Below the pieces are notes generated by a model. That model worked only from the letters and a program-made list of their open reading frames with translations, was not told the DNA's origin and did no database searches. The translations under genes and the position numbers were made by a program. From positions 96,001-160,000 of the forward strand of contig CBDEUM010000034.1 in NCBI GenBank assembly GCA_965242925.1: a stretch of 64,000 nucleotides of DNA, written 5' to 3'. This document shows, in pieces, positions 1 through 25,704 of the stretch. How positions within the stretch are numbered: position 1 is the first letter of the stretch; every line of letters begins with the position of its first letter. The stretch comes from Roseibacillus sp. Its GTDB lineage: Bacteria; Verrucomicrobiota; Verrucomicrobiia; Verrucomicrobiales; Akkermansiaceae.

Positions 1-3000
1 GAGTGCGATCCGCCGGCTCCGGAGTCCCAGGCCGGAGCAGCAGTGGGCGGATTGCGGGAGGCGATCTGGACGCCGTTGAGATAGGCAATGAAGCCGTCGT
101 CGTACTTCATGCGCAAGGTGAGGGTCAGGAGATCACCCGGATTGGCGCCCCCAAAGGGGATGCGCAGGTAGGCGGTCGGGTGCCTGGTGAACATCTCCGT
201 GTGCAGATCGAGAGAGATCTCGTCCTGGTAGCCGCTGCTGTCCTCATATCCCACCCCGGTGGTTCCCGCGAGCCAGGTGGAATCATTGAAGGAGGGGGTG
301 CGCCAGGTGGCGTCCACCGAACCATCGGCGGGCACGAGGGCGCGGACCGGAGCACCGGCGGCCAGCAGGGTCACCGCATTGGTTCCACTGGAGGCGCTGG
401 AAGCGGCAGGATTGATGGCGCCTCCGGTCAGACGGGGATCGGAGCCGTCTGTCGTGTAGTGGACCGTAGAATCGGCTGCAAAGCGCACATTGAAGCCGGG
501 CAGGACCACTCCTCCATGCTGGTTGAACTCGGGGGCATCGAGATCGGGATAGAGGTTGTGGCTGCGCATCTGGCTGAAGACCACGGCCTGCCGGCGAGGA
601 AAGTAGGTGTTCGTCATCCTGGCGTTCTGCGCATCCCAGTGATCCTGCACGGTGCGGAGACCGGACCCCTTGGCGTCGCCCCAGCGGGCCGACTCGGCAA
701 AAAGCGCGGGACGGGCGATTGCAGCCAGCTTGTTCCAGCGGGCGAGGTTGCTGACCACCGTCATGGCTCCGCCGTGGTGATAGTGTTTGTAGACGCGATC
801 GGCAAAGCGCATGCGGTATTCGACATTGGCTCGGAGCGGGATTTCGATCTCGCCCGGCGATTCGGTCCACCAGTTGTGGCCCGGGGAGGTCTGCACCTTG
901 TTGCCGCCGTTGGGATTTCCCCCCGCAAAGGGAATGTCGTTGTCCCAGGTGAAGAACTTAAAGCCATCGGTGCGTCCCCGAATCCGGTCACGGATGACGT
1001 AATAGTTGCCAGGCCAGTCGACCTGAGCGTGGTAGTGGCCGTTGATCACGTAGTCGATGAAGTTGTCGATGTCGATGAGGACGGGATAAGCCCGGTTGGG
1101 AGAGCCGTCCGGATTGTTGCCCTGAATACGCTGATAGTCCGCCGTGGTGCTGAGTCCTGCATTGGCCTCGCTGCGCAGTTGGTTCCACATCGTGATGGTC
1201 CCTGCGGTGGAACGATCCGGACAGCAGAACTTCACGACGTCGTATTGGCTCCTGTCTCCCCCGAGGTATGTTTCCGCGAACGAGTCGTCGGGCCGCTCGG
1301 TGGGATTGTAGAACCCCCAATAGATTCCGTTGAGGTAGACATGGGCGAAGATTCCCCGCACCGCCGGTTGACCCATGTCGAATTGCGCGCGCTTGCACCA
1401 CTCGTCACCTATGTAGAAGGCTGACCCGAAGCCCTGGTATTCCGTGAGCCAGGCATCACGGATGTTGCCCCGGAGGGCGATGGTGTTGAACTCGCCCGGC
1501 CCTTCGTCACCGAGAATGGGATACTGCATCCGGGCATCGCCATATTCCTTCTTGAAGAGAAGCCTCATGTTGAGTTTGGGCGTGGCATTGAGATTCCGGG
1601 ACGTGTAGCCCATGATACGCAGTCCAGCATTGGTCTGGTAGCGCCCCAGACCATCCTCCCCGATGATCTCCACTGAAACCGGCCGCTCCCACTGGGATCC
1701 GCGACCGGAGGGGTTGAGATAGATGCCGGATCCGGAATCAAAGAGATTGTCGCGATCGGTCACGATCGAAATGGTGGGAATAGACTCCAGGGAAGCGACA
1801 ATGGCGGCCCGGGCTTCGCGGGGGGTGAAGGAACGGTTACCTGCGGCCCGGGCATAATCGGTGGAATTCTGATCCATGGCGTAGTCCGCGGTGACACCCC
1901 AATTGGTGGGATAGCCGGCCGGATGACCCTGGGTGGCGACCGCATCGAGGAAGAGGTAGCTGTGGGTGTCGACATTGGTGGGATGGAAACCGGCCTTGAA
2001 GGCGGCCGCCCGCAAGACAGTGGTGGTGCGGATACTGACCGGCCCGGTGTAGACGCTCCCGTGCCTCTCGGTGGGAGTCGATCCGTCGGTGGTATAGCGG
2101 ATCGTTGCGCCCGAGGTGCTGGAAGTGATCACCACCGAAAACGGCGTGCGGTGAAATCCGCGGTCCACGCTGAAACTGGTGTCGGCCACAAAGCCGACGA
2201 CGCCGGTGGGGTCATTGGGAGCGCCCGGGGTGGGGGTGGTGAAGTATCGAGCCGAGGACACATCGTGACTGACTCCGGAAAGGCGCGGGGAGGCAACAAA
2301 ATCGGCGTCGCCCGCGAGCACGTTGAGACCCTGCACCGCCAGGACATTGCCAGTCGGCATGAGGGTGCCCGGAGGCAGGGCGACCTGGAACAGCTCGGCG
2401 CCGTTTCCTTCCGCAGTGGCGGCAGAATTCCAGGCGGGCACCCCCGGGGCATTGCGGTTGGCAATGGGCACGCCGTTGATCCAGGCGGCAAACCCGTCGT
2501 CGTAGCCCATTCCAAGTTGCAGGGTGTCGACCGCGGACGGATCAGCCACCTCAAAGGGAACGCGAACCACGATGCTGGAATTGTTGTTGAGCATGGAGGC
2601 TTCGACATCGGTCTCGATGTCATTGGCCGCATGGGGGCTGTATTTGAAGGTGCCCGCCGCGTATCGATTGGACGGACCACCGTCCTCGCTGGAGGGAAAA
2701 CTTCCGGCATCGCCAAAGCGCGAATTCCCCACGAACTGGATGAGGCTGCCACCCGTATCGATATCGAGTCCGTCAAGCGCGGAAACCCCCTGGTTTCCGT
2801 TCCTTTCACCCGAGCCGTAGCCGTAGGCCACCATGGTGTAGTCTCCCCGGCGCGAGGATGAGAGGCGCAACCAGTGGCTTGAAGCGGGTTCCTCCTTCCA
2901 GTGTTCCGGGATTGGCCCCGGTGAAGCTCTCGGTCGCGAGCACCGATCCTGCGTCGTCTCCACTGCGACTCCAGAGCTGGGCCGTGATGTTGCGGTTCAG

Positions 3001-3738
3001 TCCGTCGGAACCGTCATCAAAGACGCCCAAATCGGTAACCCGGACATCCTGGAGAGCCACGAAGTCCATTCCAAGCGACCCGCTGTAGGATTGGTTGCCC
3101 GGCACTCCCGCTTCCACCAGGTAAGCGGTATGGAATCCTGGCCCACCCCCGAGAACCGGTCCCGGCGAAGTGTTGTAGCCCACTGCCGCCCGGCCGGTGG
3201 TCCACGTGCCATCGTCGAAGCCAGGCTGAATCCAGTCGGGCGAAAGAGTGGCGGCGGGCACCCGGTAACGCGCGTTGGAGCCCGGCACCACCAGCGATTC
3301 CTGCTCAGTCAACAGCCCGTATCCCACATCTTCGCGTTGGGAGGGAACGATAGCATATTCGAAAGCCACCGAGTCATCAGGGCGCAGCAAGGTCAACGGC
3401 TCACCGGAAGCATCGAGTTTGAACGTGGTGTGCAGATGTCCTGCGCCATCGACATGATTCTCGATGGCCTGGCCGGAGGCGAAGACCACGAGATAGCCCC
3501 CGCCGGGAAGGAAAGTTCCCGCCGGAAAGCGCCAGGTTTCCATGTTGTCACGCAAGCCCCACCCAGCCAGAGCGACCTCGGCGGCGTCCGGATTGTGAAT
3601 TTCGATCCAGTCGGGATAGTTGCCGTCTCCGTCCGCGAGGATGCCGCTGTTGGACGCCATGAACTCCGAGATGACGGGTTCAGCCAGGAGGGAGGGGAGG
3701 GCGGCCCATGCAAGTGCTATGGCAATACGGGTGGTCAT
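1..3738 (-). CDS. Secreted lamin-tail-domain (LTD)/CotH kinase multidomain protein; one frameshift at ~2845-2848; runs off the left end of the window
   Basis: ORF 2806..3738 has a signal peptide and LTD (PVISEFMASN...DWIEIHN). Removing one G of the G4 run restores ...LILAPGDYTMVAYG..., and the frame then stays open to position 1. It contains YTTDGS repeats and CotH-like motifs (HVYLNGIYWGFYNPTERPD, DIDNFIDY, DWPGN, WDND). Confidence 0.85.
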
Positions 3739-3811
3739 TGGGGATCTGCGAAGCTAGGCAGGGAAACTGGTGATGCAAGCCAGCTCTCTGATCGGCCCTC
3801 ACCGACGCAGG

Positions 3812-4110
3812 TTGCTCCGGGCCTTCGCGAACGATAAATTCTCTTTCGGCGGTGATGGGCCCCCCGATTTCTCTGGTCCTTCCGGAGGCCCAGTTCACGT
3901 GCACCGAGTCTGCCGACTCCGCACCACCGAGACCGATGAGGAGCATTGCGTTGTTCTGTGTGGCATAGCTGTCCCCGCGGTTGCGCTGGAGGAGATTCTT
4001 TTCCCAGCGCACACACGTAGAGACCCTCCAGGCCGTCACCGTCAACATCGGCAACGGAGAGAGCGGTGTGGATGTTGACCGAATCCGGATAGACCCGCGA
4101 GCGGAGAGGA
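3812..4110 (-). pseudogene. Internally deleted remnant of a CRTAC1/ASPIC-UnbV (FG-GAP) gene
   Basis: Reads DSVNIHTALSVADVDGDGLEGLYVC, then after a frameshift in a GT repeat VRWEKNLLQRNRGD-SYATQNNAMLLIGLG...VNWASG. These match two far-apart parts of the intact 8392..11034 protein. Confidence 0.8.
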
Positions 4111-4301
4111 GGGCTCCCCGCCGCCGCCAGAAGAGTAATCGATCGCCCTCGTGTCTTAATTCCGGTCATATCCAGCTGATCATTCAGGTTTTAAAGCAAC
4201 TCGATACTCGACACCTTCAGCAAGGTGGTATTGGAGTGTTGAATTGTTATCGACGCCTCGAAAGCTCGCCCTGTAAGCTGCGACAAATCCAAACGACCTA
4301 C

Positions 4302-6581
4302 ATGAAAACCCAATCTTTCCTGGTGACGGGATTCCTCGTCGCCTGCCTCTTCTGCTTCGCAGGCACCCTCCAGTCGCATGCCGCCATTGCCTATGGCATC
4401 CCCGCTGGCACGGCCGGAACGCAGGCCTACAACGGAGCCCTTGGCAACGATTTCGACGTCAGCAGCCCCGACGGAATCGTGGTGACCCGCCTGGGGGTCT
4501 TTGATGATGGGTCGAACGGTCTCAACTCCACGATCACGGTGGGAATTTTCGACCGGACCACCGCCACCCTGGTGGGTTCCTCTATTACCTTCAGCGGCGA
4601 CGATGGCTCCCTGGAGGACGCAACCCGCTTCGCTGACCTGACTTCACCGATCTCGCTCCCCGCTGGATTCCAAGGGTCGATCGTGGCCCAGGGCTACAAT
4701 GGCAGTGAACAAAACGGGAATGCCGGGACCGGGTCCACGGTGGGAACAACCGACGATGGTGACGGGGCCATCACTTTCGTGGGCGGGTCGCGCTTTGGTC
4801 CAGGCGGGGTGTTCGCTTACCCCACCAGCGTCGATGGCGGGCCTGCCAACCGCTACCATGCCGGCAACTTTGACTTCACTGTTACCAATGTGGACAGTGA
4901 CAACGATGGCCTGCCCGACCACTGGGAGACTCGATTTGGTCTGGACCCCGCCGACCCCAGCGATGCGGACGACGATGGGGATGGTGACGGCTTGGACAAC
5001 CTCGAAGAATACGAAAACGGAACGGATCCGACCGAGCGCGACAGTGACGGCGACAACCTGAGCGATGGTGAGGAAATCAGCGAAGACAACGGTTTTGTTA
5101 CTGATCCCAACAACGCGGATACAGATGGCGACGGTCTGAATGACGACGTGGAGACCAATACCGGCACGTTCGTCAGTGACACCGACACCGGGACTGATCC
5201 CAACGATTCTGACACGGACAATGACGGTGATCTCGATGGCGACGAGGTTGCCGCTGGCTCCGATCCCCACGATTCCAACGACGGTATTCCTGCGCCCTAC
5301 AAGGGGTTGCTGGCGGTGGACTATCTCACCGGGGGGATCGGCACGCAGAGCTTCGGGGAGGGCCTGGGGCACGATTTCGTGGTTAATGAACCGATTTCGG
5401 TGAACGCCCTCGGCGTGTTTGACAGCGGCGCAGACGGACTGGGACTGGAGTTGTCCGCGGAACTCTGGCAGCGCGATGACGCGGGAACCCCCGAGACCTT
5501 CAACGACGACACGGGCATCCAGCTCGCTTCCCTCCTCTTTACCCCCGGTGATCCGGGGTTCCTCCACAATTCGAACCGCTTCAAGGCCCTGCCCAATCCG
5601 ATCACCCTGGAACCGGGCGCTTACACCGTGGTGGGACGAGGATACGGCAATGCCGAGCAGAACGGCAATGAGGGTACCGGCGGACCCCTGATCGATCACA
5701 AGGACATCGATGAAGGCGACGGACTCATCAGCTTCGTGGGGAATTCACGCTTCGGCGGGGGCGGGGTGGGGGTGCAAGACTTCCCCAGCAGCGTGGACGG
5801 CGGCCCCCCGGTGCGCTACAGCGCCGGCACCTTCGCCTACAAGCTGGCCAAGACCGATCATTTCTTCCTGCGCATCACGGCCACCGGCGACGATCTCGTC
5901 TTGGAGTGGGACAGCAAGTTCGGCAAGGTTTACGACATCCTGAGCAACACGGACCTTTCCGCCACTCCGGTCGAGAACTGGCCAGTGCTACGGGGAGACA
6001 TCCCGGCCACCGCTCCCCTCAACACCGAAACCATTCTCCGTCCTCCCGACGACGAGCGCTACTTCGTGGTGGTGGAAAAGGATGGCCCTCCTCTTTTCGA
6101 AGATGATTTGGAGACCGACAAGGGGTGGACCGCGATCGTGAATGATGCCAACGGTAATACCAACTGGGAGCGTGGCACACCCAGCGGCAGCACTGGTCCT
6201 CTCACCGGTGCCGATGGCTCCGCCAATGCCTGGTCCACCAACCAGGGCGACTATGGGCTGGATTCCGACATCTCCCTGCGCTCGCCGGTAATCGATTTGA
6301 CCGGCGTTCCGACCGCCGACCTGTCCTTCGACGTCTTCAGGGATGCCGATGGCTTTGGCGATACCGCCTCGGTGCGTTTCCTGGACGCAACCGGCCTCAT
6401 CCAACTGGGGTTCAGGCAGGCCATCGACATGACGGTTTTCGACGTTGACTGGTCCAACCTGGTCATCCCGGTAGCACCGGAAGCCGTCGGGCAGAACATC
6501 ATCATCGAAATCAATTTCATCAGCGACAACAGCGCGGACTCCTTCAGCGGGCTCTCCATCGATAACATACGCCTGAACTAG
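4302..6581 (+). CDS. Secreted protein: repeated beta domain, bacterial TSP3-like Ca-binding repeats, second domain copy, C-terminal beta-sandwich (MAM-like) region
   Basis: ATG at 4302 starts a signal peptide (MKTQSFLVTG...SHA). DxDxDGLxD repeats; LFEDD...NWERGTP...LRSPVIDL at the C-terminus. Confidence 0.85.
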   Translation: MKTQSFLVTGFLVACLFCFAGTLQSHAAIAYGIPAGTAGTQAYNGALGNDFDVSSPDGIVVTRLGVFDDGSNGLNSTITVGIFDRTTATLVGSSITFSGDDGSLEDATRFADLTSPISLPAGFQGSIVAQGYNGSEQNGNAGTGSTVGTTDDGDGAITFVGGSRFGPGGVFAYPTSVDGGPANRYHAGNFDFTVTNVDSDNDGLPDHWETRFGLDPADPSDADDDGDGDGLDNLEEYENGTDPTERDSDGDNLSDGEEISEDNGFVTDPNNADTDGDGLNDDVETNTGTFVSDTDTGTDPNDSDTDNDGDLDGDEVAAGSDPHDSNDGIPAPYKGLLAVDYLTGGIGTQSFGEGLGHDFVVNEPISVNALGVFDSGADGLGLELSAELWQRDDAGTPETFNDDTGIQLASLLFTPGDPGFLHNSNRFKALPNPITLEPGAYTVVGRGYGNAEQNGNEGTGGPLIDHKDIDEGDGLISFVGNSRFGGGGVGVQDFPSSVDGGPPVRYSAGTFAYKLAKTDHFFLRITATGDDLVLEWDSKFGKVYDILSNTDLSATPVENWPVLRGDIPATAPLNTETILRPPDDERYFVVVEKDGPPLFEDDLETDKGWTAIVNDANGNTNWERGTPSGSTGPLTGADGSANAWSTNQGDYGLDSDISLRSPVIDLTGVPTADLSFDVFRDADGFGDTASVRFLDATGLIQLGFRQAIDMTVFDVDWSNLVIPVAPEAVGQNIIIEINFISDNSADSFSGLSIDNIRLN

Positions 6582-6947
6582 AACCAGGTATGGCCGGACA
6601 ACGGCAGGGATTGGGTTCCTGTGATGGCATGACGATGGGAAACAATCACCGTTTGGCACCCACCGAGATGTCGCCCGCCGGAAAGGGCGCGGGTCTACGC
6701 CCTTCCTTTCCTCGACCTTGTATTTTCCCAGATATTCAAGGCTCAATTATCATCCGGCCCCTGGCACAGGCGGGAGGCCAATTTATCGAGCTGGAATTTC
6801 AGTTAACGGCAGTCCATTCCATTGCTCCTCGCTGGCACGCCAATCGACCTCTTCAAGGGCACGGCAAGTGCGGGAAAAACCCAAATTAGGGGTTGAACCA
6901 GCGCGACCTAACCCCTTTAATGGTGTCCAAGACCCATTAACTCATTG

Positions 6948-7589
6948 ATGAAGACGCTCCTATCAGTCACCGCGGGGACTGCGCTCTTACTTACCAGCGC
7001 CCTCCAATCGCATGCCGCCATTGCCTACGGCATTGACGCCGGCACGGCTGGTACGCAAGCCTATAACGGAGCGCTCGGCAACGATTTTGACGTCGTCAGC
7101 ACGACCGGAATCTCGGTGACCCGCCTGGGCGTCTTTGATGACTCATCCGATGGTCTCAACTCCACGATTACGGTGGGAATTTTTGACCGGACCGACGGCT
7201 CTCTGGTTGGTTCCTCGATTGCATTCAGTGGTAACGATGGCTCGCTGGAAGGCGGGACCCGCTTCGCTACCCTGCTCTCACCCATCACTCTTCCAGCCGG
7301 ATTCCAAGGATCGGTCGTGGCCCAGGGCTATAATGCCGCTGAGCGAAACGGGAACGGCGGGACCGGATCCACGCCTGGAACGACCGACGACGGTGGCGGC
7401 GCCATCAGTTTTGTGGGTGGTTCGCGCTTTGGGCCAGGCGGGGTGTTTGCTTACCCCACCAGCGTCGATGGCGGGCCTGCTAACCGCTACCATGCCGGCA
7501 ACTTCGACTACGACGTCATTCCCGAGCCCTCCTCCCTGGCCCTTCTTCTTGGTGCCTTCGGATTCGTCGGCTTGCGTCGGCGTCGCTAA
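6948..7589 (+). CDS. PEP-CTERM sorting domain protein A
   Basis: Signal peptide; C-terminus IPEPSSLALLLGAFGFVGLRRRR (PEP, TM helix, Arg cluster). Confidence 0.93.
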   Translation: MKTLLSVTAGTALLLTSALQSHAAIAYGIDAGTAGTQAYNGALGNDFDVVSTTGISVTRLGVFDDSSDGLNSTITVGIFDRTDGSLVGSSIAFSGNDGSLEGGTRFATLLSPITLPAGFQGSVVAQGYNAAERNGNGGTGSTPGTTDDGGGAISFVGGSRFGPGGVFAYPTSVDGGPANRYHAGNFDYDVIPEPSSLALLLGAFGFVGLRRRR

Positions 7590-7625
7590 CAATCGTTTTT
7601 ACCAACCCACGAAACAACTCATCAA

Positions 7626-8255
7626 ATGAAACTCAACCTGGCCTTCTTCAGCTGCGCAGCGATTCTGCTCAGCGCATCATCCCAACTGAGTGCTGCCATC
7701 GCGCTCACCGTCCCCGCTGGAGCGACGTTCAATCAACACCACAATGGATTGCTGGGAATGGATTTCGATGTCACCGGGCCGGACGGGATCATCGTCTCAC
7801 GTCTGGGTGCCTTCGACTCGGGGCAGGATGGAATTCTCGGGACGATCAATGTGGGAATCGTGGACCGCACCACAGGGCTCGTGGTGGGAGAAACCCTTTC
7901 GTTCTCCGGGGACGCCGGCGACGTTGTGGACGGGAGCCGCTTTCTTAACCTCGCGACTCCTATCACGCTGGCCAATGGTTTTCAGGGCTCCATCACGGCG
8001 CAGGGCTACGGTCAGGAAGGCAACGGCAACGGGCAGGTCTCAACGATCGATGACGGCGGCGGTTTGATCAATTTTGTGGGAGGAGCTCGCTGGGGCGGAG
8101 ATGACCCCATCAGCCTGGCGCCGAATGCCGATGGCGGTCCGGCGAATCGCTACTTTGCCGGTACTTTTGATTATCGGGCAGTTCCGGAGCCGGGCTCCCT
8201 GGCCTTACTTCTTGGCGCGGTAGGGCTCTTGGGCCTTCGTCGTCGCCGGGCATAA
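7626..8255 (+). CDS. PEP-CTERM sorting domain protein B
   Basis: Signal peptide; C-terminus VPEPGSLALLLGAVGLLGLRRRRA. Confidence 0.93.
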   Translation: MKLNLAFFSCAAILLSASSQLSAAIALTVPAGATFNQHHNGLLGMDFDVTGPDGIIVSRLGAFDSGQDGILGTINVGIVDRTTGLVVGETLSFSGDAGDVVDGSRFLNLATPITLANGFQGSITAQGYGQEGNGNGQVSTIDDGGGLINFVGGARWGGDDPISLAPNADGGPANRYFAGTFDYRAVPEPGSLALLLGAVGLLGLRRRRA

Positions 8256-8391: not shown

Positions 8392-11034
8392 GTGAAACGG
8401 CGGGCGTCATTGAATGGGCAGGTGATCGCAGGGCAGCCGCCCCGGTTGCCACGTCCCGGGAGGCCTTCTCTGTTCCGGCAGGGGAAGCGTTCGTCCCCCG
8501 GACAATCTTCTCGTCTGCCGTCGAGAGATCCCGGAAGGGCGTGCGTTGTGGCCTTGTCCGCCGCGCTGCTCATGCTGGCGGGGTGCGGAGAAAAGGAGTC
8601 CGACCCATCCACCAAAGATTCCGAACAAGCTGATGCCGATCTCGCCGCTTCCCTGGTGGCCTCCGAAGAACTGATCCTCGCCCTGACCCCCCGCCTGAGG
8701 AAATTCGAGCCCAGCTTGTTCTCCTCCTCCAGCCTCTATTACGCACTGGAGAAGTCAGTTCACTCCGATACGCGCTACGCGAACTGGGGCGTAAGAAATA
8801 GAGAGTGGGCCACGCCCGCTTCGGCGCCGGCAGCCAACCCGCCGGCCCTCGACGACCTCGTGACTCCGCCGGAGGGAACGTTCCCGACCCTCTCCCGGCC
8901 TCGGTTGGCCATTGTGTCCGCACGTTTCCATGCCGCTCGGACTCAATTCCGAACGGAAATACAGTGTAGCGCCTCGGCCCCGGGAGTTTGGATTCGCTCC
9001 CGCCATACCGTTGCCTGGATCAAGAGCGGCCGTTCGCCTTCCGCGTGGCAGATCTCGGCCTGGCACCAGACCAGGCTCACCGTGTCACAAAGCCCCACCC
9101 CCCTCTTTGAGGAGGTCCTCGACAAGGCCGTTCCCGATCCGCAATCCTTGGCCGCGGCCCGCACCTCGCTGCACCAGAAAATCCTGGTGGATGGCTACTT
9201 TGGCGGAACCCGTCCCCCTCTTCCAAAAGGCTACAGCGACACCCGCTTCTTCGCGGACTCGACCAACATTCACCCCGCCCTCTCGGTGGTCGACGTCGAT
9301 GGCGACGGCCACGATGATCTCTACGTCTGCGTCCGCTGGGGCAGAAACCTGCTCCTCCGCAATAGGGGCGATGGCACGTTTGAGGAGTGCGCTGCCCGCT
9401 ACGGGCTCGACATCGACGGACGAAACACAGTGGCCCTTTTTGCCGATTTCGATAACGATGGCGATCCCGATCTGTTGCTCGGCCGCAGCCTGGAACGAAG
9501 CCTCTTTCTGGTGAATGTGGGGGGACGCTTTGAGCCTCATCCCGAGCCGGTTTCGAACGGTTCTCTGCCCTGGTTGGTCACCTCTGCCTCTGCCGCCGAT
9601 TTCAACAATGATGGTCTGTTGGATCTCTATATTTGCACTTACAGTCCGCTTGACATCAGTTCCCGGACCTCCGGGTTGCCGGACCGGAGCAGCCTGGAGT
9701 GGGCCCGGCGCTTCCTTCCCGCTGAGCAAGCCGCCGAAGTCGTCCGCCGGCGGGCTGGCGCCCACAGCTATCTCTCTCAGGTGGGCCCTCCCAACGTTCT
9801 CCTCCTGGGACGAGGAACGCACTTTGAGATCGCACCGGATGCCGCAACGCTCCTCGGCTACCGCAACAGCTTCCATGCGGCCTGGAGTGATTTCGATCAG
9901 GATGGCGACCAGGATCTCTACGTCGCCAACGACTTCGCTCCCGATCACTTCTTTCGAAACGAAGGGGCCGAGGGATTCAGCGAGGTTGCCAGAGAGATCG
10001 GGCTTGACGGCCTGGGCTTTGCGATGGGGGCGGCCTGGGGTGACTATGACGGCGATGGGTGGGACGATGTCTATGTCTCCAACATGTACTCGAAGGCGGG
10101 CCGCCGCATCACCGGCCGAATCCCCGGACTCGACCGCCGATTCTCCGCCATCTCGGGCGGCAACTTCCTCTACCGCAATCGCGGAGATGGAACCCTGGAG
10201 CGGGTTTCGGGAGCCGACGACAAACCCGTCCCCGTCCACGACGCCGGCTGGTCGTGGGGTGGACAATTCTGCGATTTCGATAACGACGGACACCTCGACC
10301 TTTATGTTTCCAGCGGCTTCTACACGCCTCCACCGGGGGAGGATATCGGAGTCGATTTGTGAAGTTGCCTTTGGCGCTCGGTCGTGCGCTCCGACAGTTC
10401 CCTGCCTCCGGATTTTCGCGCCGAAAAGACTTGGACGACCGATCCCAATACCGGGGCCCACGCGCCTGCCCTCAATCGAACGGATTTCTACAATGGTCCG
10501 GATTACCACCGGCATTCCTACAGCGGTTACGAGCACAACAAATTTTATCTGAATGTCGGCGGGAAGACCTTTTCAGACCTCTCTGGAGTCTCCGGGGTCG
10601 ACAACATCGCGGACGGTCGAAGCTGGTGTGCTCTCGACTACGACCAGGACGGCTGGACCGATATCGCGCTGGTCAACTCGAATCACCCCCTGCTGAATCT
10701 CTACCGAAATCGGATGGGCGAGCGGTCCAAGAACAATCATCTCAAAATTCGCCTGCTCGGCGGGGCGCGAGCTGGCGAGCGGTCCATGGCATGGAGCAAT
10801 CGTGACGCGGTGGGCGCCGTGGTAGAAATCACGACCGGCTCTCGCACGCTGCGGCGCGTTCGCCAACTGGGAGAAGGCTATGCCGCCCAGAACAGCGCCA
10901 CCCTGACGATCGGGATTGGTGAGGCGCTCGCTGCGGAATCACTTCGGGTCACCTGGCCTTCGGGGAAGACCACCAAGATCATGACCCCGATCCCGGCAGG
11001 AGTGGTTCTCACCCTCAAGGAACGTCCGGACTAA
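8392..11034 (+). CDS. CRTAC1/ASPIC-UnbV family FG-GAP repeat lipoprotein; candidate selenoprotein (in-frame TGA at 10360-10362); true start probably downstream of 8392
   Basis: Lipobox LAGC (Cys codon 8584) and many DxDxDGxxDL repeats. ORFs 8392..10362 and 10384..11034 share a frame and are separated only by the TGA and 7 sense codons. C-terminal ASPIC/UnbV motif GEGYAAQNS...VTWPSG. Confidence 0.85.
10363..10394 (+). promoter_or_regulatory. Candidate bacterial SECIS element
   Basis: GCGC(10374-77) pairs with GCGC(10386-89), with a C-G pair closing a GGUC loop at +18..+21 after the UGA; lower stem UUGG/CCGA is possible. The loop sequence and spacing resemble the E. coli fdhF SECIS. Confidence 0.65.
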
Positions 11035-11149: not shown

Positions 11150-14100
11150 ATGAAACTCAATCTGCCGTTGATCAGCTGCGCAGCGATTTTGCTCAGCGCA
11201 TCATCCCAACTGAGTGCTACCATCGCACTCACCGTCCCTGCTGGAGCGACGTTCAATCAACACCACAATGGATTGCTTGGAATGGATTTCGATGTCAACG
11301 GGCCGGACGGGATTATCGTCACACGTCTGGGCGCCTTCGACTCGGGACAGGATGGCATTCTCGGGACGATCATTGTAGGAATCGTGGACCGCGCCACCGG
11401 AAACGTGGTGGGAGAAACCCTTTCGTTCTCCGGGGACGCCGGCGACGTTGTGGACGGGAGCCGCTTTCTCGCCCTCACCACGCCCCTGGTATTACCCAAT
11501 GGTTTTCAGGGTTCCATCACCGCGCAGGGCTACGGTCAGGAAGGCAACGGCAACGGGCAGGTCTCAACGATCGATGACGGCGACGGCTTGATCACGTTCG
11601 TGGGAGGAGCCCGCTGGGGCGGAGATGACCCCCTGACCCTGGCGACGAATGCTGATGGCGGCCCGGCCAATCGCTACTTTGCCGGCACCTTTGAATTCCT
11701 GAGCGAGGATCTGAGCGAGGACACCGATGGGGATGGGTTGCCCAATGCCTGGGAAGAGACCTTCGGCTTGAATCCCAGTGATCCTGACGATGCCGATGAT
11801 GACGGCGACGGCGATGGTCTGAACAACACGGAGGAGTTTGAGAACAACACCGATCCCACCGAGCGGGACACAGATGGTGATGACCTGACCGATGGTGAAG
11901 AGGTCAACACTGCCATGACCGATCCAACCAAGAGGGATAGCGACGGCGATGGCCTGTGGGACAGCGTTGAAACCAATACTCGCTCCTTTACGAGTTGGAC
12001 CGGTGATTTGGAAGATCCAGACGTTCCCCAAACAGGGGACACCGGATCCGATCCCAATGATACCAATACCGACGATGACGGGTTTTCAGACGGCGCGGAA
12101 GTCGCCGCGGGCTTTGACCCGAATGATCCGAACAGCGGTCCGCCGTCATCCCAACTGAGTGCTGCCATCGCACTCACCGTCCCCGCTGGAGCGACGTTCA
12201 ATCAACACCACAATGGATTGCTGGGAATGGATTTCGATGTCACCGGGCCGGACGGGATCATCGTCACACGTCTGGGCGCCTTCGACTCGGGGCAGGATGG
12301 AATTCTCGGGACGATCAATGTAGGAATCGTGGACCGCGCCACCGGAAACGTGGTGGGAGAAACCCTTTCGTTCTCCGGGGACGCCGGCGACGTTGTGGAC
12401 GGCAGCCGCTTTCTCGCCCTCACCACGCCCCTCATATTACCCAATGGTTTTCAGGGTTCCATCACGGCGCAGGGCTACGGTCAGGAAGGCAACGGCAACG
12501 GGCAGGTCTCAACGATCGATGACGGCAATGGCTTGATCACGTTCGTGGGAGGAGCTCGCTGGGGCGGAGATGACCCCCTGACCCTGGCGCCGAATGCTGA
12601 TGGCGGCCCGGCGAATCGCTATTTTGCCGGCACCTTTGAATTCCTGAGCGAGGACACCGATGGGGATGGGTTGCCTGATGCCTGGGAAGAGACCTTCGGC
12701 TTGAATCCCAGTGATCCTGACGATGCCGATGATGACGGCGACGGCGATGGTCTGAACAACACGGAGGAGTTTGAGAACAACACCGATCCCACCGAGCGGG
12801 ACACGGATGGTGATGACCTGACCGATGGTGAAGAGGTCAACACTGCCATGACCGATCCAACCAGGAGGGATAGCGACGGCGATGGCCTGTGGGACAGCGT
12901 TGAAACCAATACTCGCTCCTTCACGAGTTGGACCGGTGATTTGGAAGATCCAGATGTTCCCCAAACAGGGGATACCGGATCCGATCCCAATGATACCAAT
13001 ACCGACGATGACGGGTTTTCAGACGGCGAGGAGGTCGCGGCAGGCTTTGACCCGAATGATCCGGACAGCGGTCCGTCGCTCTCCTTCCAAGGCATGCTGG
13101 CGATCGACTACCTGGAGCCAGGAGTCGGAACGCAGGAATTTGCGGAAGGACTGGGACACGACTTCCTCGTGATCGGCGAGGCGATCGAAGTCACCGCGCT
13201 TGGCGTATTCGACAGTGGGGCGGATGGTCTCAACCGGGAGCTCACCTCCGAGCTCTGGGTGCGGGACGACAACAACTTGGGGACGTCGTTGCTGGCATCC
13301 CTCTCCTTCGTCCCGGGGGCACCCGGGCTGCTGCACCATTCGAACCGGATCAAATCTCTCCCCATCCCACTCGTCCTCGAGCCGGGCGCCTACACAATTG
13401 TCGGTCGGGGCTATGGGGCGGGTGAGCCGAACGGGAATACCGGTGGTCCTGGATCAGACCTCAAGCCCATCAATGATGGAGGCGGACGGATCGAGTTCGT
13501 GGGCGGTGCCCGTTGGGGGGGCGGTGGGATTGGTGGCGCCGTTGGATTCCCACAAAATGTTGATGGCGGACCGCCGGTGCGCTATGCGGCGGGGACCTTT
13601 GCCTTCCGGACTGAGCCGCCGCCTAAATTGTTCTGGCGAATTTCCTCGAGCGGGGACGATCTCATCTTCGAGTGGGAGAGCAGATTAGGGAAGGTCTACG
13701 ACATCTTAAGCAACGACGATCTCTCCGATCACCCGGCAGCAGGCTGGCCCCTCTTCCGCGGAGACATTGCCGGGACCCCTCCCTTGAATGTCGAGACCTC
13801 CCTTCGCCCCCCCGACGAAAAACGCTACTTCGTGCTGGTCGAGAGGGACGGTCCGCCTCTTTTCGAAGATGATTTTGAGACTGACAAAGGGTGGACCGCG
13901 ATCGTGAACGATGCCAACGGCAATACCAACTGGGAGCGCGGCACCCCCGGCGGCAGCACTGGACCGCTCACCGGCGCCGATGGCTCCGCCAATGCCTGGT
14001 CCACCAACCAGGGAGACTACGGACCGGATTCCGACATCGCCCTGCGCTCGCCGCTTATTGATTTGACCGGTATTCCGACCGCCGAATTGTCCCTCGACGC

Positions 14101-14353
14101 CTTCAGGGACGCCGATGGCTTCGCCGACACCGCCTCGGTGCGCTTTCTGGACGCAACCGGCCTCACCCAGTTGGGGTTCGAGCACCCCATCGACATGACT
14201 GTCTTCGACGGTGACTGGACCAACCTGGTCATCCCGGTGGCACCAGAAGCCCTCGGGGAGAGCATCATCATCGAAATCAATTTTATCAGCGACAACAGCG
14301 AGGACACCTTCAGCGGGCTCTCCATTGACAACGTCAGCGTGAGTGCCGAGTAG
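11150..14353 (+). CDS. Secreted protein: two tandem (beta domain + TSP3-like repeats) units, a third domain copy and a C-terminal beta-sandwich; paralog of 4302..6581
   Basis: Signal peptide almost identical to that of PEP-CTERM B; DTDGDGLP repeats; C-terminal ~160 aa closely match the 4302 gene. Confidence 0.9.
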   Translation: MKLNLPLISCAAILLSASSQLSATIALTVPAGATFNQHHNGLLGMDFDVNGPDGIIVTRLGAFDSGQDGILGTIIVGIVDRATGNVVGETLSFSGDAGDVVDGSRFLALTTPLVLPNGFQGSITAQGYGQEGNGNGQVSTIDDGDGLITFVGGARWGGDDPLTLATNADGGPANRYFAGTFEFLSEDLSEDTDGDGLPNAWEETFGLNPSDPDDADDDGDGDGLNNTEEFENNTDPTERDTDGDDLTDGEEVNTAMTDPTKRDSDGDGLWDSVETNTRSFTSWTGDLEDPDVPQTGDTGSDPNDTNTDDDGFSDGAEVAAGFDPNDPNSGPPSSQLSAAIALTVPAGATFNQHHNGLLGMDFDVTGPDGIIVTRLGAFDSGQDGILGTINVGIVDRATGNVVGETLSFSGDAGDVVDGSRFLALTTPLILPNGFQGSITAQGYGQEGNGNGQVSTIDDGNGLITFVGGARWGGDDPLTLAPNADGGPANRYFAGTFEFLSEDTDGDGLPDAWEETFGLNPSDPDDADDDGDGDGLNNTEEFENNTDPTERDTDGDDLTDGEEVNTAMTDPTRRDSDGDGLWDSVETNTRSFTSWTGDLEDPDVPQTGDTGSDPNDTNTDDDGFSDGEEVAAGFDPNDPDSGPSLSFQGMLAIDYLEPGVGTQEFAEGLGHDFLVIGEAIEVTALGVFDSGADGLNRELTSELWVRDDNNLGTSLLASLSFVPGAPGLLHHSNRIKSLPIPLVLEPGAYTIVGRGYGAGEPNGNTGGPGSDLKPINDGGGRIEFVGGARWGGGGIGGAVGFPQNVDGGPPVRYAAGTFAFRTEPPPKLFWRISSSGDDLIFEWESRLGKVYDILSNDDLSDHPAAGWPLFRGDIAGTPPLNVETSLRPPDEKRYFVLVERDGPPLFEDDFETDKGWTAIVNDANGNTNWERGTPGGSTGPLTGADGSANAWSTNQGDYGPDSDIALRSPLIDLTGIPTAELSLDAFRDADGFADTASVRFLDATGLTQLGFEHPIDMTVFDGDWTNLVIPVAPEALGESIIIEINFISDNSEDTFSGLSIDNVSVSAE
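11201..13075 (+). repeat. Near-identical intragenic tandem duplication, period 945 bp
   Basis: tcatcccaactgagtgc starts at both 11201 and 12146. The copies differ by scattered substitutions and a 12-nt indel (LSEDLSED versus LSED). Confidence 0.92.
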
Positions 14354-14478
14354 ATCTCGACTGACCAAATAATCAACAAACCTTGCCAGGCGGTGAAGTC
14401 CACAGGCATTCACAAGTTTGCCGTGCGGTGTCTGTTGGAATTTTCGGGAAAGCAGTCTATGCTTCCCCGGTCCCCCTG

Positions 14479-17400
14479 ATGCACCCTCCCTTCCGTCTGC
14501 TCTTCTGTCGAGTCCCCCAATTGGTGGCGACCCGAATGGTGGCTTGCCTGCTATTCGGAACAGCACCGCTTTTGGCCAATCCCTTCATCTCCGAGTTTAT
14601 GGCGGACAATGGCTCCACCCTGGCCGATGAGGACGGCGAGTTTCCGGACTGGATCGAGATTACCAACAGCGGAACGGAGCCGGTCGATCTCGCCGGCTGG
14701 CACCTCACCGACGACGAGACCAAGCCCACCAAGTGGACGTTCCCCGGTCCCGCCTCACTGGCAGGAGGGCAGTCGCTGGTCGTCTTCGCGTCGGGCAAGA
14801 ACCGCCACCGACCTGGCAGACCCCTCCACACCAACTTCGCTCTCAATCAAAGCGGAGAGTTCCTGGCCCTGGTGGCCCCGGATGGCGCCACGCTGGCAAG
14901 CCGCTTCTCGCCCTACCCCCCCCAGGAACTCGACCTCTCCTACGGAGTGGGACTGGGTCCCGCGGCTGTGACCACTCTCCTGATTGAGGACGACTCCCAG
15001 GCCCTCCTGCTGGTTCCCTCCGGCCCGGTTGACGACTCCTGGCGGGGCGGAGAACCCTTCAATGAAAACTCCTGGACCCCCGTGCAACTGGGCGTGGGCT
15101 TCAACACCGGGGGTGGCGCGGTGATCGGTGGGGGAGGGGGGGAAACCACCATCGCCTACGGCGTGGCGGATGGGACCTCCGGCACGCAGGTATTCGGGGG
15201 AGGACTGGGGATGGACTTCGCCGTCCTCGAGTCAATCTCGGTGAAAAAGCTCGGTGTCTTCGATGACGATTCGGACGGACTGAACCGCACCATTACGGCC
15301 GAGCTTTGGTCGCGGGACGGCAACGGTAGCGGCATCGTGCTGGCCAGCGAAACCTTCACTTCCGGCAACCCCGGAACCCTCGAAGCGGGTCATCGCTTCA
15401 AGTCCCTTTCCTCCCCGCTCACGCTGGAACCGGGCCCCTACACCATCGTGGCCCACGGCTACGGAGGTGATGAACGCAATGGCAACTCGGGCGGCAACGG
15501 GGACTTTGCCACCTCGAACGACGGAGGGGGCCTGATCCAGTTCGTGGGCTCCAGCCGCTTCGGCTCTGCGGGCGGGGCCTGGCCGGATAGCGAGGACGGG
15601 GGCGGACCGGCCCGCTACGGGGCAGGCACCTTCACCTTTGCGGCCGTCGGCGACAGCCTGATTCGGACCGATCTGGAATCCGGGATGCATGGCCAGAACG
15701 CCTCCGCTCTGTTGCGGATCCCCTTTTCCTACGCCGGACCGGAACTTGCTACCACTCTCACTCTTGAGATCGCCTACGACGATGGATTCACCGCCTGGCT
15801 CAACGGCCAGCTACTCACTTCGCGCAATGCCTCCACCGATCCCGCTTGGAACAATGTCGCCAGCGCTGCAGGGAATGCGGTGGAGACCATCGTGCTGCCC
15901 TCGACCGCCTTGACGATTGGCGACAACGTTCTCGCCGTCCAGGGAATGAACCTGCATGGAGACGATCCGGACTTCATGGTTGCTCCCCAACTCTCCGCCG
16001 CTTTCTCCCGCTTCGAACGTCTCTACTTCTCCAATCCAACCCCCGGCCAACCCAACGGCCAGGGCGAGCAAGGCACCGGGATCGTGATCAACGAAATCCA
16101 CTACGACCCCTCTTCAGACACCGCACCGGCCGAGTTCCTCGAACTCTACAACGCGGGAGCGCGCACGGTGAATCTCACCGGATGGCGCCTGACCGGGGCG
16201 GTGGACTACACCTTCCCGGCCAACACCGGACTGGCCCCTGACCGCTACCTCGTGGTGGCTCTGAATGCGCCCTTCTTCGAGGCGGAGTTCAGCGGGGTTC
16301 CGGTTCACGCGCCCTTCCTGGGCCGGCTCAGCAACAACGGGGAAACCGTGGAGCTGCGCAACAACCTCGATGAAGCCATCGACAGGGTGAATTACGCCGT
16401 GGGCGCACCCTGGCCCGTGGCGGGCAACGATCCCTATCCCTCGATCCAACTGCTCCATCCCGGGCAGGACAATGATTTGGCGGGCAGTTGGCGAGCCGCT
16501 CCACCTACGCCGGGAGCACTCAACGCCGTCTTCTCAGTCGATACTCCACCACAGGTGCGCCAGGTCAATCACCTGCCTCTCGCCCCCGCCAGCGGGGAAG
16601 AAGTGGTGGTCAGCTGTAAGGTCACTGATCCCGATGGGGTGGCCTCGGTCACGCTGGAATACCAGACCGTGCTGCCGGGGCGCTACCTTCGCCTCAGCGA
16701 CGCTACCTTTGAGACAAGCTGGGATAGGCTGCCGATGTCACTCCTTCCCACTGGCCAGAGCACCTATCAGGCGACCCTGCCCGCCGACCTCCAGCGCCAC
16801 CGTCAACTTATTCGCTACCGCATCGTGGCTGAAGATTCCTTCGGGGCAACCGTGAGGCTTCCGCTGCCCAGCGACCCCTCCGTCAACTTTGCCTACTTCG
16901 TCTACAATGGCGTCCCGGGTTGGCGGGGAGCCATCATTCCGGGCGAAACTCCCGTTCTCGATTTCAGTGCGGAGGCAATGAACCACCTTCCGACCTACCA
17001 TCTCATCGCGAATGCTGAGGACGTGAGCGCGTCCCAGTACAACCGCTCCTTCAACGACAAGGTCTACCGCTTCGAAGGGGCCCTGGTCTACGACGGTGTA
17101 GTTTATGACCACATGCGCTACCGTGTTCGCGGTCATGGCTCGACCTACAACACCGGAAAGAACAAGTGGAAGCTGCGTTTCAATCGCGGACACCTCTTCC
17201 AGGGACGCGACGACTACGGGCGCCCCTACCGGGAAAAGGTGCGAACCCTGAACTGGAGCGCTCTCTCCAGCCCCTGGAACCCCGCCAATCGCGGAGCAGC
17301 TGGATTGGATGAAGCGCTGGCCTTCCGGCTCTGGCGCATGGCCGGCATCCCTGCTGCCAACACCAACTATTTCCATCTTCGTATCATCGACGGCGCGCGG

Positions 17401-19518
17401 GAGACGAACCGGGGAAATCAGTTCGAAGGCGACAACTGGGGTCTCTATCTCGCCCTTGAGCAAACGGACCGCCGTTTTCTCGACGAGCGCGGGTTACCCG
17501 ATGGGAATACCTTCAATATGCACTTTGGCTCGAGCAACATCGTCAATCAGGCTTACCGCCAGCCGTCCAACCGCAGCGACCTCTTCACATTCAACGGAGC
17601 CAGCTCCCGGGGATACAATCGAGCTAATCCGGTGCAACCGGTGGCCTGGTGGAATCGCACGGTGGACCTGGAAAGCTACTTTTCCTATCGGGCGATTCTG
17701 GAAGCGGTCAATCACTCCGACCTGCGCGACAAGGAAAACTCCATCCTTTACCACGACCCCACCAAACGGCGGTGGACCATGATCCCGTGGGACGTTGACC
17801 TGCTCTACGAAGAGTTCGATCGCTGGGGGCCAAACGCGGTGCAAAGCCCCGCCACCCTCGAGCAATTCCGCAAGGCGCTCACTCATCCCGAGATCAACAT
17901 CCGCTTTCAAAACCGCGCCCGGGAGTTGCAGGACCTTCTCCTCAATAGCGACCAGGGATGGACTCTCGTCGACGAATTGGCCAGCGTTCTGGGCAGCTCC
18001 GACGGCAATCTCGGCATGGCGGAATTGGACGCTGCCCGTTGGAATGGAGATCCGCAGACAAGACGGGTCGAGGGATCGAGTCCCAATCCGAAAGCCTACT
18101 TCTTCATGAACCCCTACACCTCGACGCGCTTCCCCGCCAAGAGGCGCACCCTCATTTCCGGAGACTTCCCGGGCATGGTGGACTGGGTGAAAAAGTTCAT
18201 TGTGCCACGGGGCTTTGGCGGGGGGCGACTCCGCGACATGACGCGGGATTCCCGCATTCCGGAGACACCAGTCATCTCCTACACCGGATCGAACGGCTTC
18301 CCGGCGGTTGGGTTGCGACTCAGGAGCAACGCCTTTGCACCTGGAAACGGGGGCGCGTCATTCGCGGCCATGGAATGGCGCATCGGTGAGGTCCGTCATC
18401 CGGACGTGCCTGGTTTCGAGGAAGGAGAACCGTGGCGCTATGAGATCGAGGCCACCTGGAGCTCGGGCGAATTAAATGTCTTTCAAGACGAGATCGCGGT
18501 GCCCGCTGTCGCGGTGCAAGTCGGTCGCCTCTATCGAGGCCGGGTGAGACACCGGGGTGACGACGGGCGCTGGAGTCATTGGTCCGCCCCCCTGGAATTC
18601 ACGACCGCGAATCCCGATCTCCAACCCTACCTGACGGGTCTCGTAATCAGCGAGGTGATGTATAATCCCGCCGATGATAATCAGGAACTCGAGTTCATTG
18701 AAGTGCGAAACGTGGGGCCGTCCACCCTTGATCTCTCAGACGTGCGCTTCAGCAACGGGATTGAGTTCTCCTTTGCGGCCTCGAGCATCACAAGTCTGGC
18801 GGCTGGCAGCAGGGCCCTGGTAGTGCGCAACGAGGCCGTCTTCGAAGCGCATTACGGTGCCAATCTGCCCGTGGCAGGCGAATATCGCCTCTCCGCCTCC
18901 AACAATCTGAGTAATGCCGGGGAACGCGTGACGCTCTCCCTGGGCGCAGACAGCATTATCCGGGATTTCAGCTATCGCGACAACCGACCCTGGCCAAGCG
19001 GTGCCGACGGCACGGGCTACTCGCTGGTCCTGAGGGCACCCGAATCCCTCCCCGATCACAGCCTCGCCGTCAACTGGCGCAGCAGCGCCCTGCCCGACGG
19101 TAATCCTGGCAGCTCCGATGCCCTTCCTGAGTTCACCGGCGATCCCCACCGGGACGACGATCAAGATGGCCTGATGGCTCTCCTGGAACACGCCCTGGGT
19201 GGCGATCCCGCCACCGCCGAGTCCGAATTGGTTCCTGCCGCTTCCGTCATGAACCTCGAAGTGGAGGGCACCTTTGACAATTACCTCACCATCAGTGCCC
19301 GGCGGATGTTGGGGGCCGACGACGTGACCCTCATCGCGCAGATCAGCGGGAACCTCGTCGACTGGTCGAGCGCTCCGGAGCGCGTGGTCCTGGTGAGCGA
19401 GGTCCCGAATGCAGATGGCACTTCGATCATGACCTGGCGCAGCGCCCGTCCTATGGCGGAGGCTCCCCAGGAGTTTCTGCGAATTGAAGCTTCCATTCAG
19501 CGGATCCCACTCAGGTAG
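14479..19518 (+). CDS. Large secreted LTD/CotH kinase multidomain protein
   Basis: Three LTDs (ISEFMADN, INEIHYDP, ISEVMYNP), a CotH region (YRVRGHGS, KWKLRFN, WGLYLALEQ, IPWDVD) and one copy of the repeated beta domain. Start is uncertain (14479 or 14536). Confidence 0.88.
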   Translation: MHPPFRLLFCRVPQLVATRMVACLLFGTAPLLANPFISEFMADNGSTLADEDGEFPDWIEITNSGTEPVDLAGWHLTDDETKPTKWTFPGPASLAGGQSLVVFASGKNRHRPGRPLHTNFALNQSGEFLALVAPDGATLASRFSPYPPQELDLSYGVGLGPAAVTTLLIEDDSQALLLVPSGPVDDSWRGGEPFNENSWTPVQLGVGFNTGGGAVIGGGGGETTIAYGVADGTSGTQVFGGGLGMDFAVLESISVKKLGVFDDDSDGLNRTITAELWSRDGNGSGIVLASETFTSGNPGTLEAGHRFKSLSSPLTLEPGPYTIVAHGYGGDERNGNSGGNGDFATSNDGGGLIQFVGSSRFGSAGGAWPDSEDGGGPARYGAGTFTFAAVGDSLIRTDLESGMHGQNASALLRIPFSYAGPELATTLTLEIAYDDGFTAWLNGQLLTSRNASTDPAWNNVASAAGNAVETIVLPSTALTIGDNVLAVQGMNLHGDDPDFMVAPQLSAAFSRFERLYFSNPTPGQPNGQGEQGTGIVINEIHYDPSSDTAPAEFLELYNAGARTVNLTGWRLTGAVDYTFPANTGLAPDRYLVVALNAPFFEAEFSGVPVHAPFLGRLSNNGETVELRNNLDEAIDRVNYAVGAPWPVAGNDPYPSIQLLHPGQDNDLAGSWRAAPPTPGALNAVFSVDTPPQVRQVNHLPLAPASGEEVVVSCKVTDPDGVASVTLEYQTVLPGRYLRLSDATFETSWDRLPMSLLPTGQSTYQATLPADLQRHRQLIRYRIVAEDSFGATVRLPLPSDPSVNFAYFVYNGVPGWRGAIIPGETPVLDFSAEAMNHLPTYHLIANAEDVSASQYNRSFNDKVYRFEGALVYDGVVYDHMRYRVRGHGSTYNTGKNKWKLRFNRGHLFQGRDDYGRPYREKVRTLNWSALSSPWNPANRGAAGLDEALAFRLWRMAGIPAANTNYFHLRIIDGARETNRGNQFEGDNWGLYLALEQTDRRFLDERGLPDGNTFNMHFGSSNIVNQAYRQPSNRSDLFTFNGASSRGYNRANPVQPVAWWNRTVDLESYFSYRAILEAVNHSDLRDKENSILYHDPTKRRWTMIPWDVDLLYEEFDRWGPNAVQSPATLEQFRKALTHPEINIRFQNRARELQDLLLNSDQGWTLVDELASVLGSSDGNLGMAELDAARWNGDPQTRRVEGSSPNPKAYFFMNPYTSTRFPAKRRTLISGDFPGMVDWVKKFIVPRGFGGGRLRDMTRDSRIPETPVISYTGSNGFPAVGLRLRSNAFAPGNGGASFAAMEWRIGEVRHPDVPGFEEGEPWRYEIEATWSSGELNVFQDEIAVPAVAVQVGRLYRGRVRHRGDDGRWSHWSAPLEFTTANPDLQPYLTGLVISEVMYNPADDNQELEFIEVRNVGPSTLDLSDVRFSNGIEFSFAASSITSLAAGSRALVVRNEAVFEAHYGANLPVAGEYRLSASNNLSNAGERVTLSLGADSIIRDFSYRDNRPWPSGADGTGYSLVLRAPESLPDHSLAVNWRSSALPDGNPGSSDALPEFTGDPHRDDDQDGLMALLEHALGGDPATAESELVPAASVMNLEVEGTFDNYLTISARRMLGADDVTLIAQISGNLVDWSSAPERVVLVSEVPNADGTSIMTWRSARPMAEAPQEFLRIEASIQRIPLR

Positions 19519-25703: not shown

Positions 25704-25704
25704 G

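Follow-up and report, generated by a model that had tools for sequence, protein, structure and literature searches.

The first 19,518 nucleotides of a stretch of Roseibacillus sp. DNA 64,000 nucleotides long (the window, corresponding to positions 96001-160000 of contig C34 in the source genome) hold six neighbouring genes, A to F, that share nine copies of one domain, here called X. This island consists of two tandem cassettes, one made of a kinase gene (A), the remnant of a CRTAC1 gene, a scaffold gene (B) and a PEP-CTERM gene (C), and the other of a PEP-CTERM gene (D), a CRTAC1-like gene, a scaffold gene (E) and a kinase gene (F). A sequence-only reading of the window had described an island built on X, perhaps a dedicated envelope or matrix system. 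The system is not built on X alone: the island represents one variant within a family of cassettes spread over the genome, and in this family the shared domain is the variable part, swapped between cassettes. Every fixed part of a cassette belongs to a known family and the predicted fold of X is a known one; the layout with an interchangeable shared domain was not described in any of the literature matches listed. These PEP-CTERM/CotH surface gene clusters are a real, conserved genomic system. As to their function, X may bind a glycan and serve as a shared address tag that brings the PEP-CTERM protein, the scaffold and the CotH kinase-like enzyme to one ligand, a reading to which we give nearly even odds.

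Cassettes with an interchangeable domain

The cassette layout comprises a CRTAC1/ASPIC propeller, an LTD-X-CotH kinase, an X-PEP-CTERM protein and a multi-X scaffold, and the two cassettes of the island are two of many. Open frames of the source genome include 31 with CotH, 42 with choice-of-anchor J, 43 with CRTAC1/ASPIC and 28 with PEP-CTERM, some of them pieces of split genes. The PEP-CTERM genes lie at most 5 kb from a scaffold in 15 of 28 cases, from a kinase in 13 and from a CRTAC1 gene in 15, against a genome background of 7-10%. For 19 of the 28 proteins, the genome contains a non-PEP homolog of the mature domain, and for 16 one lies within 12 kb; the best non-PEP homolog falls within 12 kb for 13, where 0.45 would be expected, and these cases involve 11 domain families. 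As many as 24 different families fill the slot of X among the 28 proteins. Scaffolds behave similarly, with 17 of 40 matching a kinase/LTD protein and the best match lying within 15 kb for eight (0.46 expected). A third cassette of identical layout directly upstream of the window (C34:83577-94864, locus L164) has LamG in common to its kinase, PEP-CTERM protein and scaffold; in genome G014, this LamG cassette is found downstream of the X cassette instead. In regions of other genomes chosen around CotH/ASPIC matches, the best partner of the PEP-CTERM protein was located in the same region for 3/4 proteins in G004, 2/7 in G045 and 1/3 in G049. When 20 of the 28 PEP-CTERM proteins were scanned, the mature domain was recognisable in four, and all four have lectin or carbohydrate-binding module (CBM) folds: two are LamG domains scoring above cut-off, and the others, one F5/8 type C and one L-type lectin, score below it. 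For one further PEP-CTERM protein, the Atlas clusters matched were unnamed and pointed weakly to galactose-binding and malectin domains. Among the literature matches listed (open-access texts without supplements), none described the cassette layout, the CotH expansion or a CRTAC1 selenoprotein.

Co-localisation of X with CRTAC1 and CotH genes was looked for in other genomes of the Planctomycetes-Verrucomicrobia-Chlamydiae (PVC) group, as the sequence-only reading had suggested, and the clustering recurs; it is not unique to this genome, nor does any characterised family match the full domain. Similar X clusters are present in genomes G014 and G008. We collected 71 X loci spanning 2-20 kb, six of them from three congeners, mostly from Verrucomicrobiota and Planctomycetota and with few from other phyla. 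They include X fused to CotH (12 loci), a CotH gene (16), at least two X genes (12) and CRTAC1 (8). These loci yielded 18 candidate kinase frames. A full CotH domain was obtained from 12 of them, and in 11 cases its closest match among the 31 paralogs was that of gene A (seven) or gene F (four). Two of the 11 proteins have no X and are each encoded beside an X scaffold; for the X-fused cases, the closeness of the kinases partly reflects plain orthology. In Verrucomicrobiota and Planctomycetota alike, X is linked to these two kinase lineages, and because it travels with them in several families of two phyla, a simple local expansion is ruled out as the origin of the island. A Planctomycetales locus moreover places an X-PEP-CTERM gene beside the closest relative, among 43 paralog open reading frames (ORFs), of the CRTAC1-like gene of the window, with the same UGA codon. 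Orthology to the window gene was absent in the three other X-neighbouring CRTAC1 genes and one ASPIC fragment tested. The X copy of gene A is 72% identical to a kinase copy from another family (L121) vs 51% to that of its own scaffold, and X copies appear to fall into role-specific lineages, kinase copies being nearer to the kinase copies of other families. The X tree was built with a quick method and has many open forks, so that only identities and starred groups were used.

Genes of the island

All nine copies announced by the sequence-only reading were recovered in the six genes, at most about 10 bases from where it had placed them. The motifs it described are present, and its three architectures (PEP-CTERM, TSP3 scaffold and LTD-CotH) were borne out by Pfam and NCBIfam scans. 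The genes are:

Gene A, 1..3738, minus strand: signal-peptide-like start, LTD, X, CHB_HEX_C/Fn3-associated domain, CotH kinase, LTD; the gene extends about 1 kb past the window start.
CRTAC1/ASPIC remnant, 3683..4190, minus strand: about 500 bases with both ends only; a full-length gene occupies the same position in G014.
Gene B, 4302..6581, plus strand: scaffold with signal-peptide-like start, X, Asp-rich TSP3 repeats, X, C-terminal constant region and choice-of-anchor J.
Gene C, 6945..7589, plus strand: X and PEP-CTERM sorting signal.
Gene D, 7626..8255, plus strand: X and PEP-CTERM.
CRTAC1-like gene, 8392..11034, plus strand: FG-GAP/ASPIC-UnbV protein with a lipobox-like LAGC (by inspection) and an in-frame TGA at 10360-10362.
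Gene E, 11150..14353, plus strand: scaffold, X-TSP3-X-TSP3-X-choice-of-anchor J.
Gene F, 14383..19518, plus strand: LTD, X, LTD, CotH kinase, LTD; the start is probably no earlier than 14479.

The copies of X are:

X in gene A, 2637-3129, minus strand: kinase-type lineage, split by a one-base frameshift at 2845.
B1 in gene B, 4386-4880, plus strand: 84% identical to the gene C copy.
B2 in gene B, 5310-5843, plus strand: hidden Markov model (HMM) match.
X in gene C, 7020-7514, plus strand: copy used for the structure model.
X in gene D, 7698-8177, plus strand: 89-91% identical to E1 and E2.
E1, E2 and E3 in gene E, 11222-11701, 12167-12646 and 13097-13609, plus strand: HMM matches.
X in gene F, 15151-15642, plus strand: HMM match.

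The copies are 160-178 aa long and share 37-97% pairwise identity, with 13 positions invariant in all nine (Q13, D22, D40, R57, R81, Y104, E108, N110, N112, R136, D150, R156 and Y157). A tenth copy was not found in six-frame HMM searches of the 42 contigs of the source genome with two models, built on nine copies and on 443 sequences (next match E 0.19). Signal-peptide-like starts were recognised by inspection on all six X proteins, which are probably exported, and choice-of-anchor J (NF038128) lies at the C-terminus of both scaffolds, outside X. At the DNA level, the D, E1 and E2 copies are 89-97% identical, and recent duplication or conversion appears to have occurred inside a cassette as well. 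A remnant of the signal peptide common to genes D and E precedes E2 (about 12140-12166), a trace of duplication out of a gene start.

The frameshift at 2845 is probably an assembly error, because the extra base is missing in 4/4 sequencing runs and the orthologous open frames are intact in G014 and G008 (1613 and 1659 aa). The absence of this base from all four runs also rules out gene A as a pseudogene. One base at position 4116, in the CRTAC1 remnant, is omitted in the contigs of two runs and may be an assembly error of the same kind. Weak matches of Binary_toxB to gene E were below cut-off, fell within the Asp-rich TSP3 repeats and were discarded. An Rfam scan of the window gave no matches, and the RNA runs contain 10-14% of its sequence words.

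The CotH domains of genes A and F score 57.7 and 80 bits (PF08757, cut-off 23.8). Gene F aligns to B. cereus CotH (5JD9, E 0.0025), and its D, N and WD residues fall at the matching positions, so that the catalytic D and N and the metal-binding D are retained; in the gene A kinase these residues were recognised by motif inspection only. Many Verrucomicrobiales have about 20-50 CotH kinase genes. A Fam20 member is known to phosphorylate a sugar. According to the available part of PMC12189002, CotH is a Fam20C-like atypical kinase, and the B. subtilis and B. cereus CotH are protein kinases needed for coat integrity. The PEP-CTERM signals of genes C and D score above cut-off (PEP motif, hydrophobic helix and basic tail), and the source genome encodes one exosortase. 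It also has one VTC and one DUF4956 gene (C14:153154-154459), in divergent orientation to the genes for an X-type LTD-CotH kinase and the scaffold that goes with it. DUF4956 is present in 32 of 41 CotH-positive vs none of 19 CotH-negative relatives, counts to which kin contribute non-independently.

The CRTAC1-like genes form a candidate exported selenoprotein family with predicted selenocysteine insertion. In the window gene, the TGA at 10360-10362 is a candidate selenocysteine codon in the context D-L-U-S-C, and 13 of 27 CRTAC1 frames, from 13 loci, stop at a TGA-AGT at this same site (D-L-x-S-x-x-W motif). A hairpin starts 11-14 bases after the TGA in nine of the 13, and 11 of these TGA-split genes continue at once into ASPIC-containing frames of 201-699 aa; one (on contig C37) is broken shortly after the TGA. 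The source genome has SelB, SelD and tRNA-Sec. The SelB gene lies in the window (47160-49121, minus strand), not adjacent to other sel genes, and the SelD gene (C14:573853-574776, L171) has an in-frame TGA of its own.

Outside the island, the window encodes a 974-aa protein (44226-47150, plus strand) with three near-identical repeats of about 316 aa and Ig/cadherin-like stretches, a likely adhesin. Visual inspection of the ORF list suggests that the region following the island (24420-32067) carries sulfatases and cytochrome c/DUF1552-like gene pairs of planctomycete type.

Fold of X and its putative ligand

The sequence-only reading had described the N-terminal half of X as DUF4082-like, and this was borne out, if weakly. 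PF13313 matched one of seven X copies (23.7 bits, gathering threshold 28.4) and, with a limit of E <= 0.1, 16 members of a 108-sequence alignment, the best of them at 5.3e-5, and its whole-protein score was passed by 4 of 48 multi-copy homologs; it had no match in a search of the source genome. The weak match is confined to the N-terminal ~95 residues of X. An hhalign comparison likewise covered the N-terminal half only (72 columns, E 0.0043, probability 7.9%, the DUF4082 side being 13 copies from one genome), and DUF4082 is the top Atlas match of X (0.94). No characterised family matched the full domain, and no choice-of-anchor model of NCBIfam matched X in the window proteins. Membership of X in DUF4082 or in a choice-of-anchor family was ruled out by the sub-threshold scores, the absence of a genome match and the absence of an NCBIfam match.

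The structure model of X (pLDDT 95.6, pTM 0.91) was compared to known structures with VIA-align. PHR domains came first, second and fourth (Z 10.0, 9.5 and 9.0; best match 3no8_B, rmsd 3.3, 140 residues aligned), along with a cyanophage A4 capsid chain Z (Z 9.3), the Ca-bound Cwp84 lectin-like domain (Z 8.7) and the N-terminal domains of PVA esterase (Z 7.3) and PbeAcXE (Z 6.8); viral structural proteins are also among the best matches. A DUF4082 model, itself of pLDDT 66.5, has each of the ten top fold neighbours of X among its own top eleven. Since the weak N-terminal match is joined by the same set of structural neighbours, X is modelled as a sister family of DUF4082 with a PHR-type beta-sandwich fold, and not as DUF4082 proper. 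The PHR model of Pfam (PF08005) matched one of 108 X members (E 0.015), short of sequence membership, and a PDB sequence search with the X alignment gave no matches at E <= 10.

Conserved residues outside the core, in 443 non-redundant copies, are Q13, D22, D40, D/N44, R57, R81, Y104, E108, N112, R136, D150 and Y157 (Q13 87%, D40 99%, E/D108 97%, N112 89%, R136 88%, D150 85% and Y/F157 96% conserved), polar positions compatible with a candidate binding site. Among the fold neighbours, the N-terminal domain of PbeAcXE binds uronic acid through Arg25, Asn26 and Arg139 (available text of PMC9105624) and the Cwp84 lectin-like domain binds a structural Ca (available text of PMC4089489). The A4 chain is presumably gp25, a trimeric cement protein termed a CBM on structural similarity in the accessible part of PMC12002296.

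X is common among exported proteins, most of them from PVC bacteria. The number of representatives retrieved grows from 400 at E <= 1e-30 to 1175 at 1e-10 and 2832 at 1e-3. The distribution is patchy: 13 of 60 relatives have X, four of them belonging to the 19 congeners, as do 5 of 300 genomes across the phylum (10 candidates scored per genome, which may undercount). Scaffolds with three copies are present in Limisphaera isolates. Proteins have up to six copies and combine X with Fn3, TSP3, RTX, cadherin, dockerin, type IX secretion system (T9SS) tails, GDSL esterase or beta-helices; the carriers include T9SS-tailed GDSL-esterase and beta-helix proteins and RTX/cadherin adhesins. Viral contigs gave 56 pattern matches, none an X relative, and a BFVD search with X gave five matches at E <= 0.001, all of them uninformatively named. 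A weak domain match in G004 (L187) was not reproduced and was dropped. Three giant proteins of about 5000 aa (L013, L014 and L051, from G033, G026 and G345) carry divergent X copies every ~470 aa. A Myxococcales protein (P0120, L089) has two X copies with Cys-rich repeats between them, behind a MYXO-CTERM-like stretch, and recalls a TraA-type architecture.

The fold neighbours of X, the lectin folds in the same slot of sister cassettes and the carriage of X on polysaccharide-type enzymes are the reasons for considering X a putative glycan-binding address. X would likely bind a surface or matrix glycan, possibly with the assistance of Ca. The anchored single-copy X-PEP-CTERM protein would tether this ligand, the multivalent scaffold would cross-link it, and the CotH kinase, delivered by its own X domain, would phosphorylate the glycan or proteins gathered on it, each exported protein set thus gathering on, and modifying, its own cell-surface target. 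Most speculatively, the single VTC/DUF4956 gene pair might supply a phosphate donor outside the cytoplasm. The wider proposal, that PVC bacteria have paralogous extracytoplasmic phosphorylation cassettes, each joining a CotH lineage to an interchangeable lectin-type address that an exosortase-anchored protein and a multivalent scaffold bear too, some with a selenocysteine CRTAC1 and all fuelled by one VTC/DUF4956 pair, is possible but doubtful. If it held, a single cell could phosphorylate glycans and proteins of its surface or matrix by dozens of routes, each with an address of its own.

Several observations weigh against these readings. Among the 28 PEP-CTERM proteins, nine lack a partner and only four share their domain with a neighbouring kinase/LTD protein; in the regions of G029 (0/3) and G052 (0/2), no PEP-CTERM protein has a domain in common with a neighbour, and X is fused to CotH in only 12 of the 71 related loci. 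Pfam has no family for 16 of the 20 PEP-CTERM domains scanned, which leaves the slot argument with four cases. Z values of 7-10 are modestly above the typical best of 7-8 stated for the structure tool, and Foldseek of the X model against the PDB gave no match at E <= 0.001. Exposed-type aromatics are few among the invariant positions of X, and Trp is absent from them, in contrast to many CBMs. The gene A kinase domain has no PDB sequence match, and SelA was not found in the source genome (89.9% complete). Sugar binding was not shown by the Cwp84 authors, the usual binding region being absent, and the PHR-bearing MYCBP2 is listed among the non-carbohydrate-binding neighbours of that fold (available part of PMC4089489).

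The main rival is direct docking between X domains, where the X of the kinase would bind that of the scaffold or PEP-CTERM protein, in a scaffoldin-like recruitment, or copies would polymerise into a kinase-phosphorylated coat. We consider this unlikely, although the role-specific lineages of the copies, the PHR domains heading the fold list, the trimeric gp25 (PMC12002296) and the need for Bacillus CotH in coat integrity (PMC12189002), both as far as the available text goes, speak for it. Unrelated lectin folds fill the same slot in sister cassettes, for which a shared ligand is simpler than docking pairs invented repeatedly, and X is also present on enzymes and adhesins for which a partner gene was not seen. 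Somewhat more unlikely still is that X binds a foreign glycan, on an algal particle or host surface, the cassettes being an adhesin repertoire for different substrates with kinases merely co-targeted. Close relatives of the stretch, including near-identical DNA, in seawater and marine metagenomes are consistent with this, as are the 24 slot families, the patchy distribution among congeners and the RTX/cadherin adhesins; however, no glycoside hydrolase or transporter was found within the window cassettes in Pfam and NCBIfam scans, and the lasting linkage of specific kinase lineages to X would be left unexplained.

X could also have a structural role without a specific ligand, as a module that Ca stabilises within a Ca-rich matrix, itself acidic and phosphorylated, in line with its conserved Asp, Glu and Asn residues, the Asp-rich TSP3 repeats and FG-GAP propellers alongside it, and the structural Ca of Cwp84, whose ligands E448 and N487 (available text of PMC4089489) fall near X E108 and N155 by range arithmetic only. 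A spacer role fails to explain the single-domain PEP-CTERM versions or the cassette-specific swapping of X, and we find this improbable. Least probable, by a little, is neutral local shuffling, in which neighbouring secreted genes would share domains only via tandem duplication and gene conversion. The near-identical D, E1 and E2 copies and the signal-peptide remnant before E2 are what it would produce, but kinase and scaffold copies of X diverged long ago and are still linked in several families of two phyla, and the Planctomycetales locus pairs X-PEP-CTERM with the closest relative, out of 43 paralog ORFs, of the UGA-containing CRTAC1 of the window.

Comparison with known systems

The cassette layout provides a testable pairing rule, by which the domain held in common indicates what a kinase probably targets and which proteins are its likely partners, and which bears on PEP-CTERM proteins, mostly without assigned function. 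X itself is a compact, well-modelled domain of PHR/DUF4082 fold that lends itself to a direct search for its ligand. Should the kinases act on extracellular glycans or matrix proteins, this would bear on coat building and particle attachment in marine bacteria.

Like DUF4082, itself uncharacterised among the literature matches listed, X is mobile, repeated in large proteins and has the same top fold neighbours, but its C-terminal half has motifs of its own and its score is below the gathering threshold. With the PHR (PF08005), Cwp84 lectin-like and AcXE CBM-like domains X shares a predicted beta-sandwich topology (Z 6.8-10, rmsd 3.3-3.7 over 132-140 residues), whereas its sequence is only 9-17% identical to theirs and matches no PDB chain. 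Cellulosomes have cohesin repeats on a scaffold and dockerins on enzymes. The cassettes similarly place a multivalent scaffold beside enzymes, but no cohesin or dockerin was found in the nine window ORFs scanned, and the enzymes are kinase-like. Kin recognition by TraA/TraB of myxobacteria involves a MYXO-CTERM receptor with Cys-rich repeats and a beta-barrel/OmpA partner. Here too, a variable domain with a C-terminal sorting tag lies beside a TSP3-repeat protein; in contrast, no OmpA or beta-barrel domain was detected in the nine window ORFs, and MYXO-CTERM scores were below cut-off.

The PEP-CTERM/exosortase system is represented by the signals of genes C and D and by the exosortase of the genome, with the difference from its description in the available part of PMC1569441 that the anchored protein is often paired here with a large neighbour carrying the same domain. 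Finally, a trio of cotH, poly-phosphate polymerase and DUF4956 genes accompanies the pel polysaccharide loci of Gram-positive bacteria (available text of 10.1101/768473), a polysaccharide-locus precedent for the association of CotH, VTC and DUF4956. Unlike those loci, the cassettes described here involve about 30 large multidomain CotH proteins per genome, bearing variable-domain tags, in a non-sporulating Gram-negative group.

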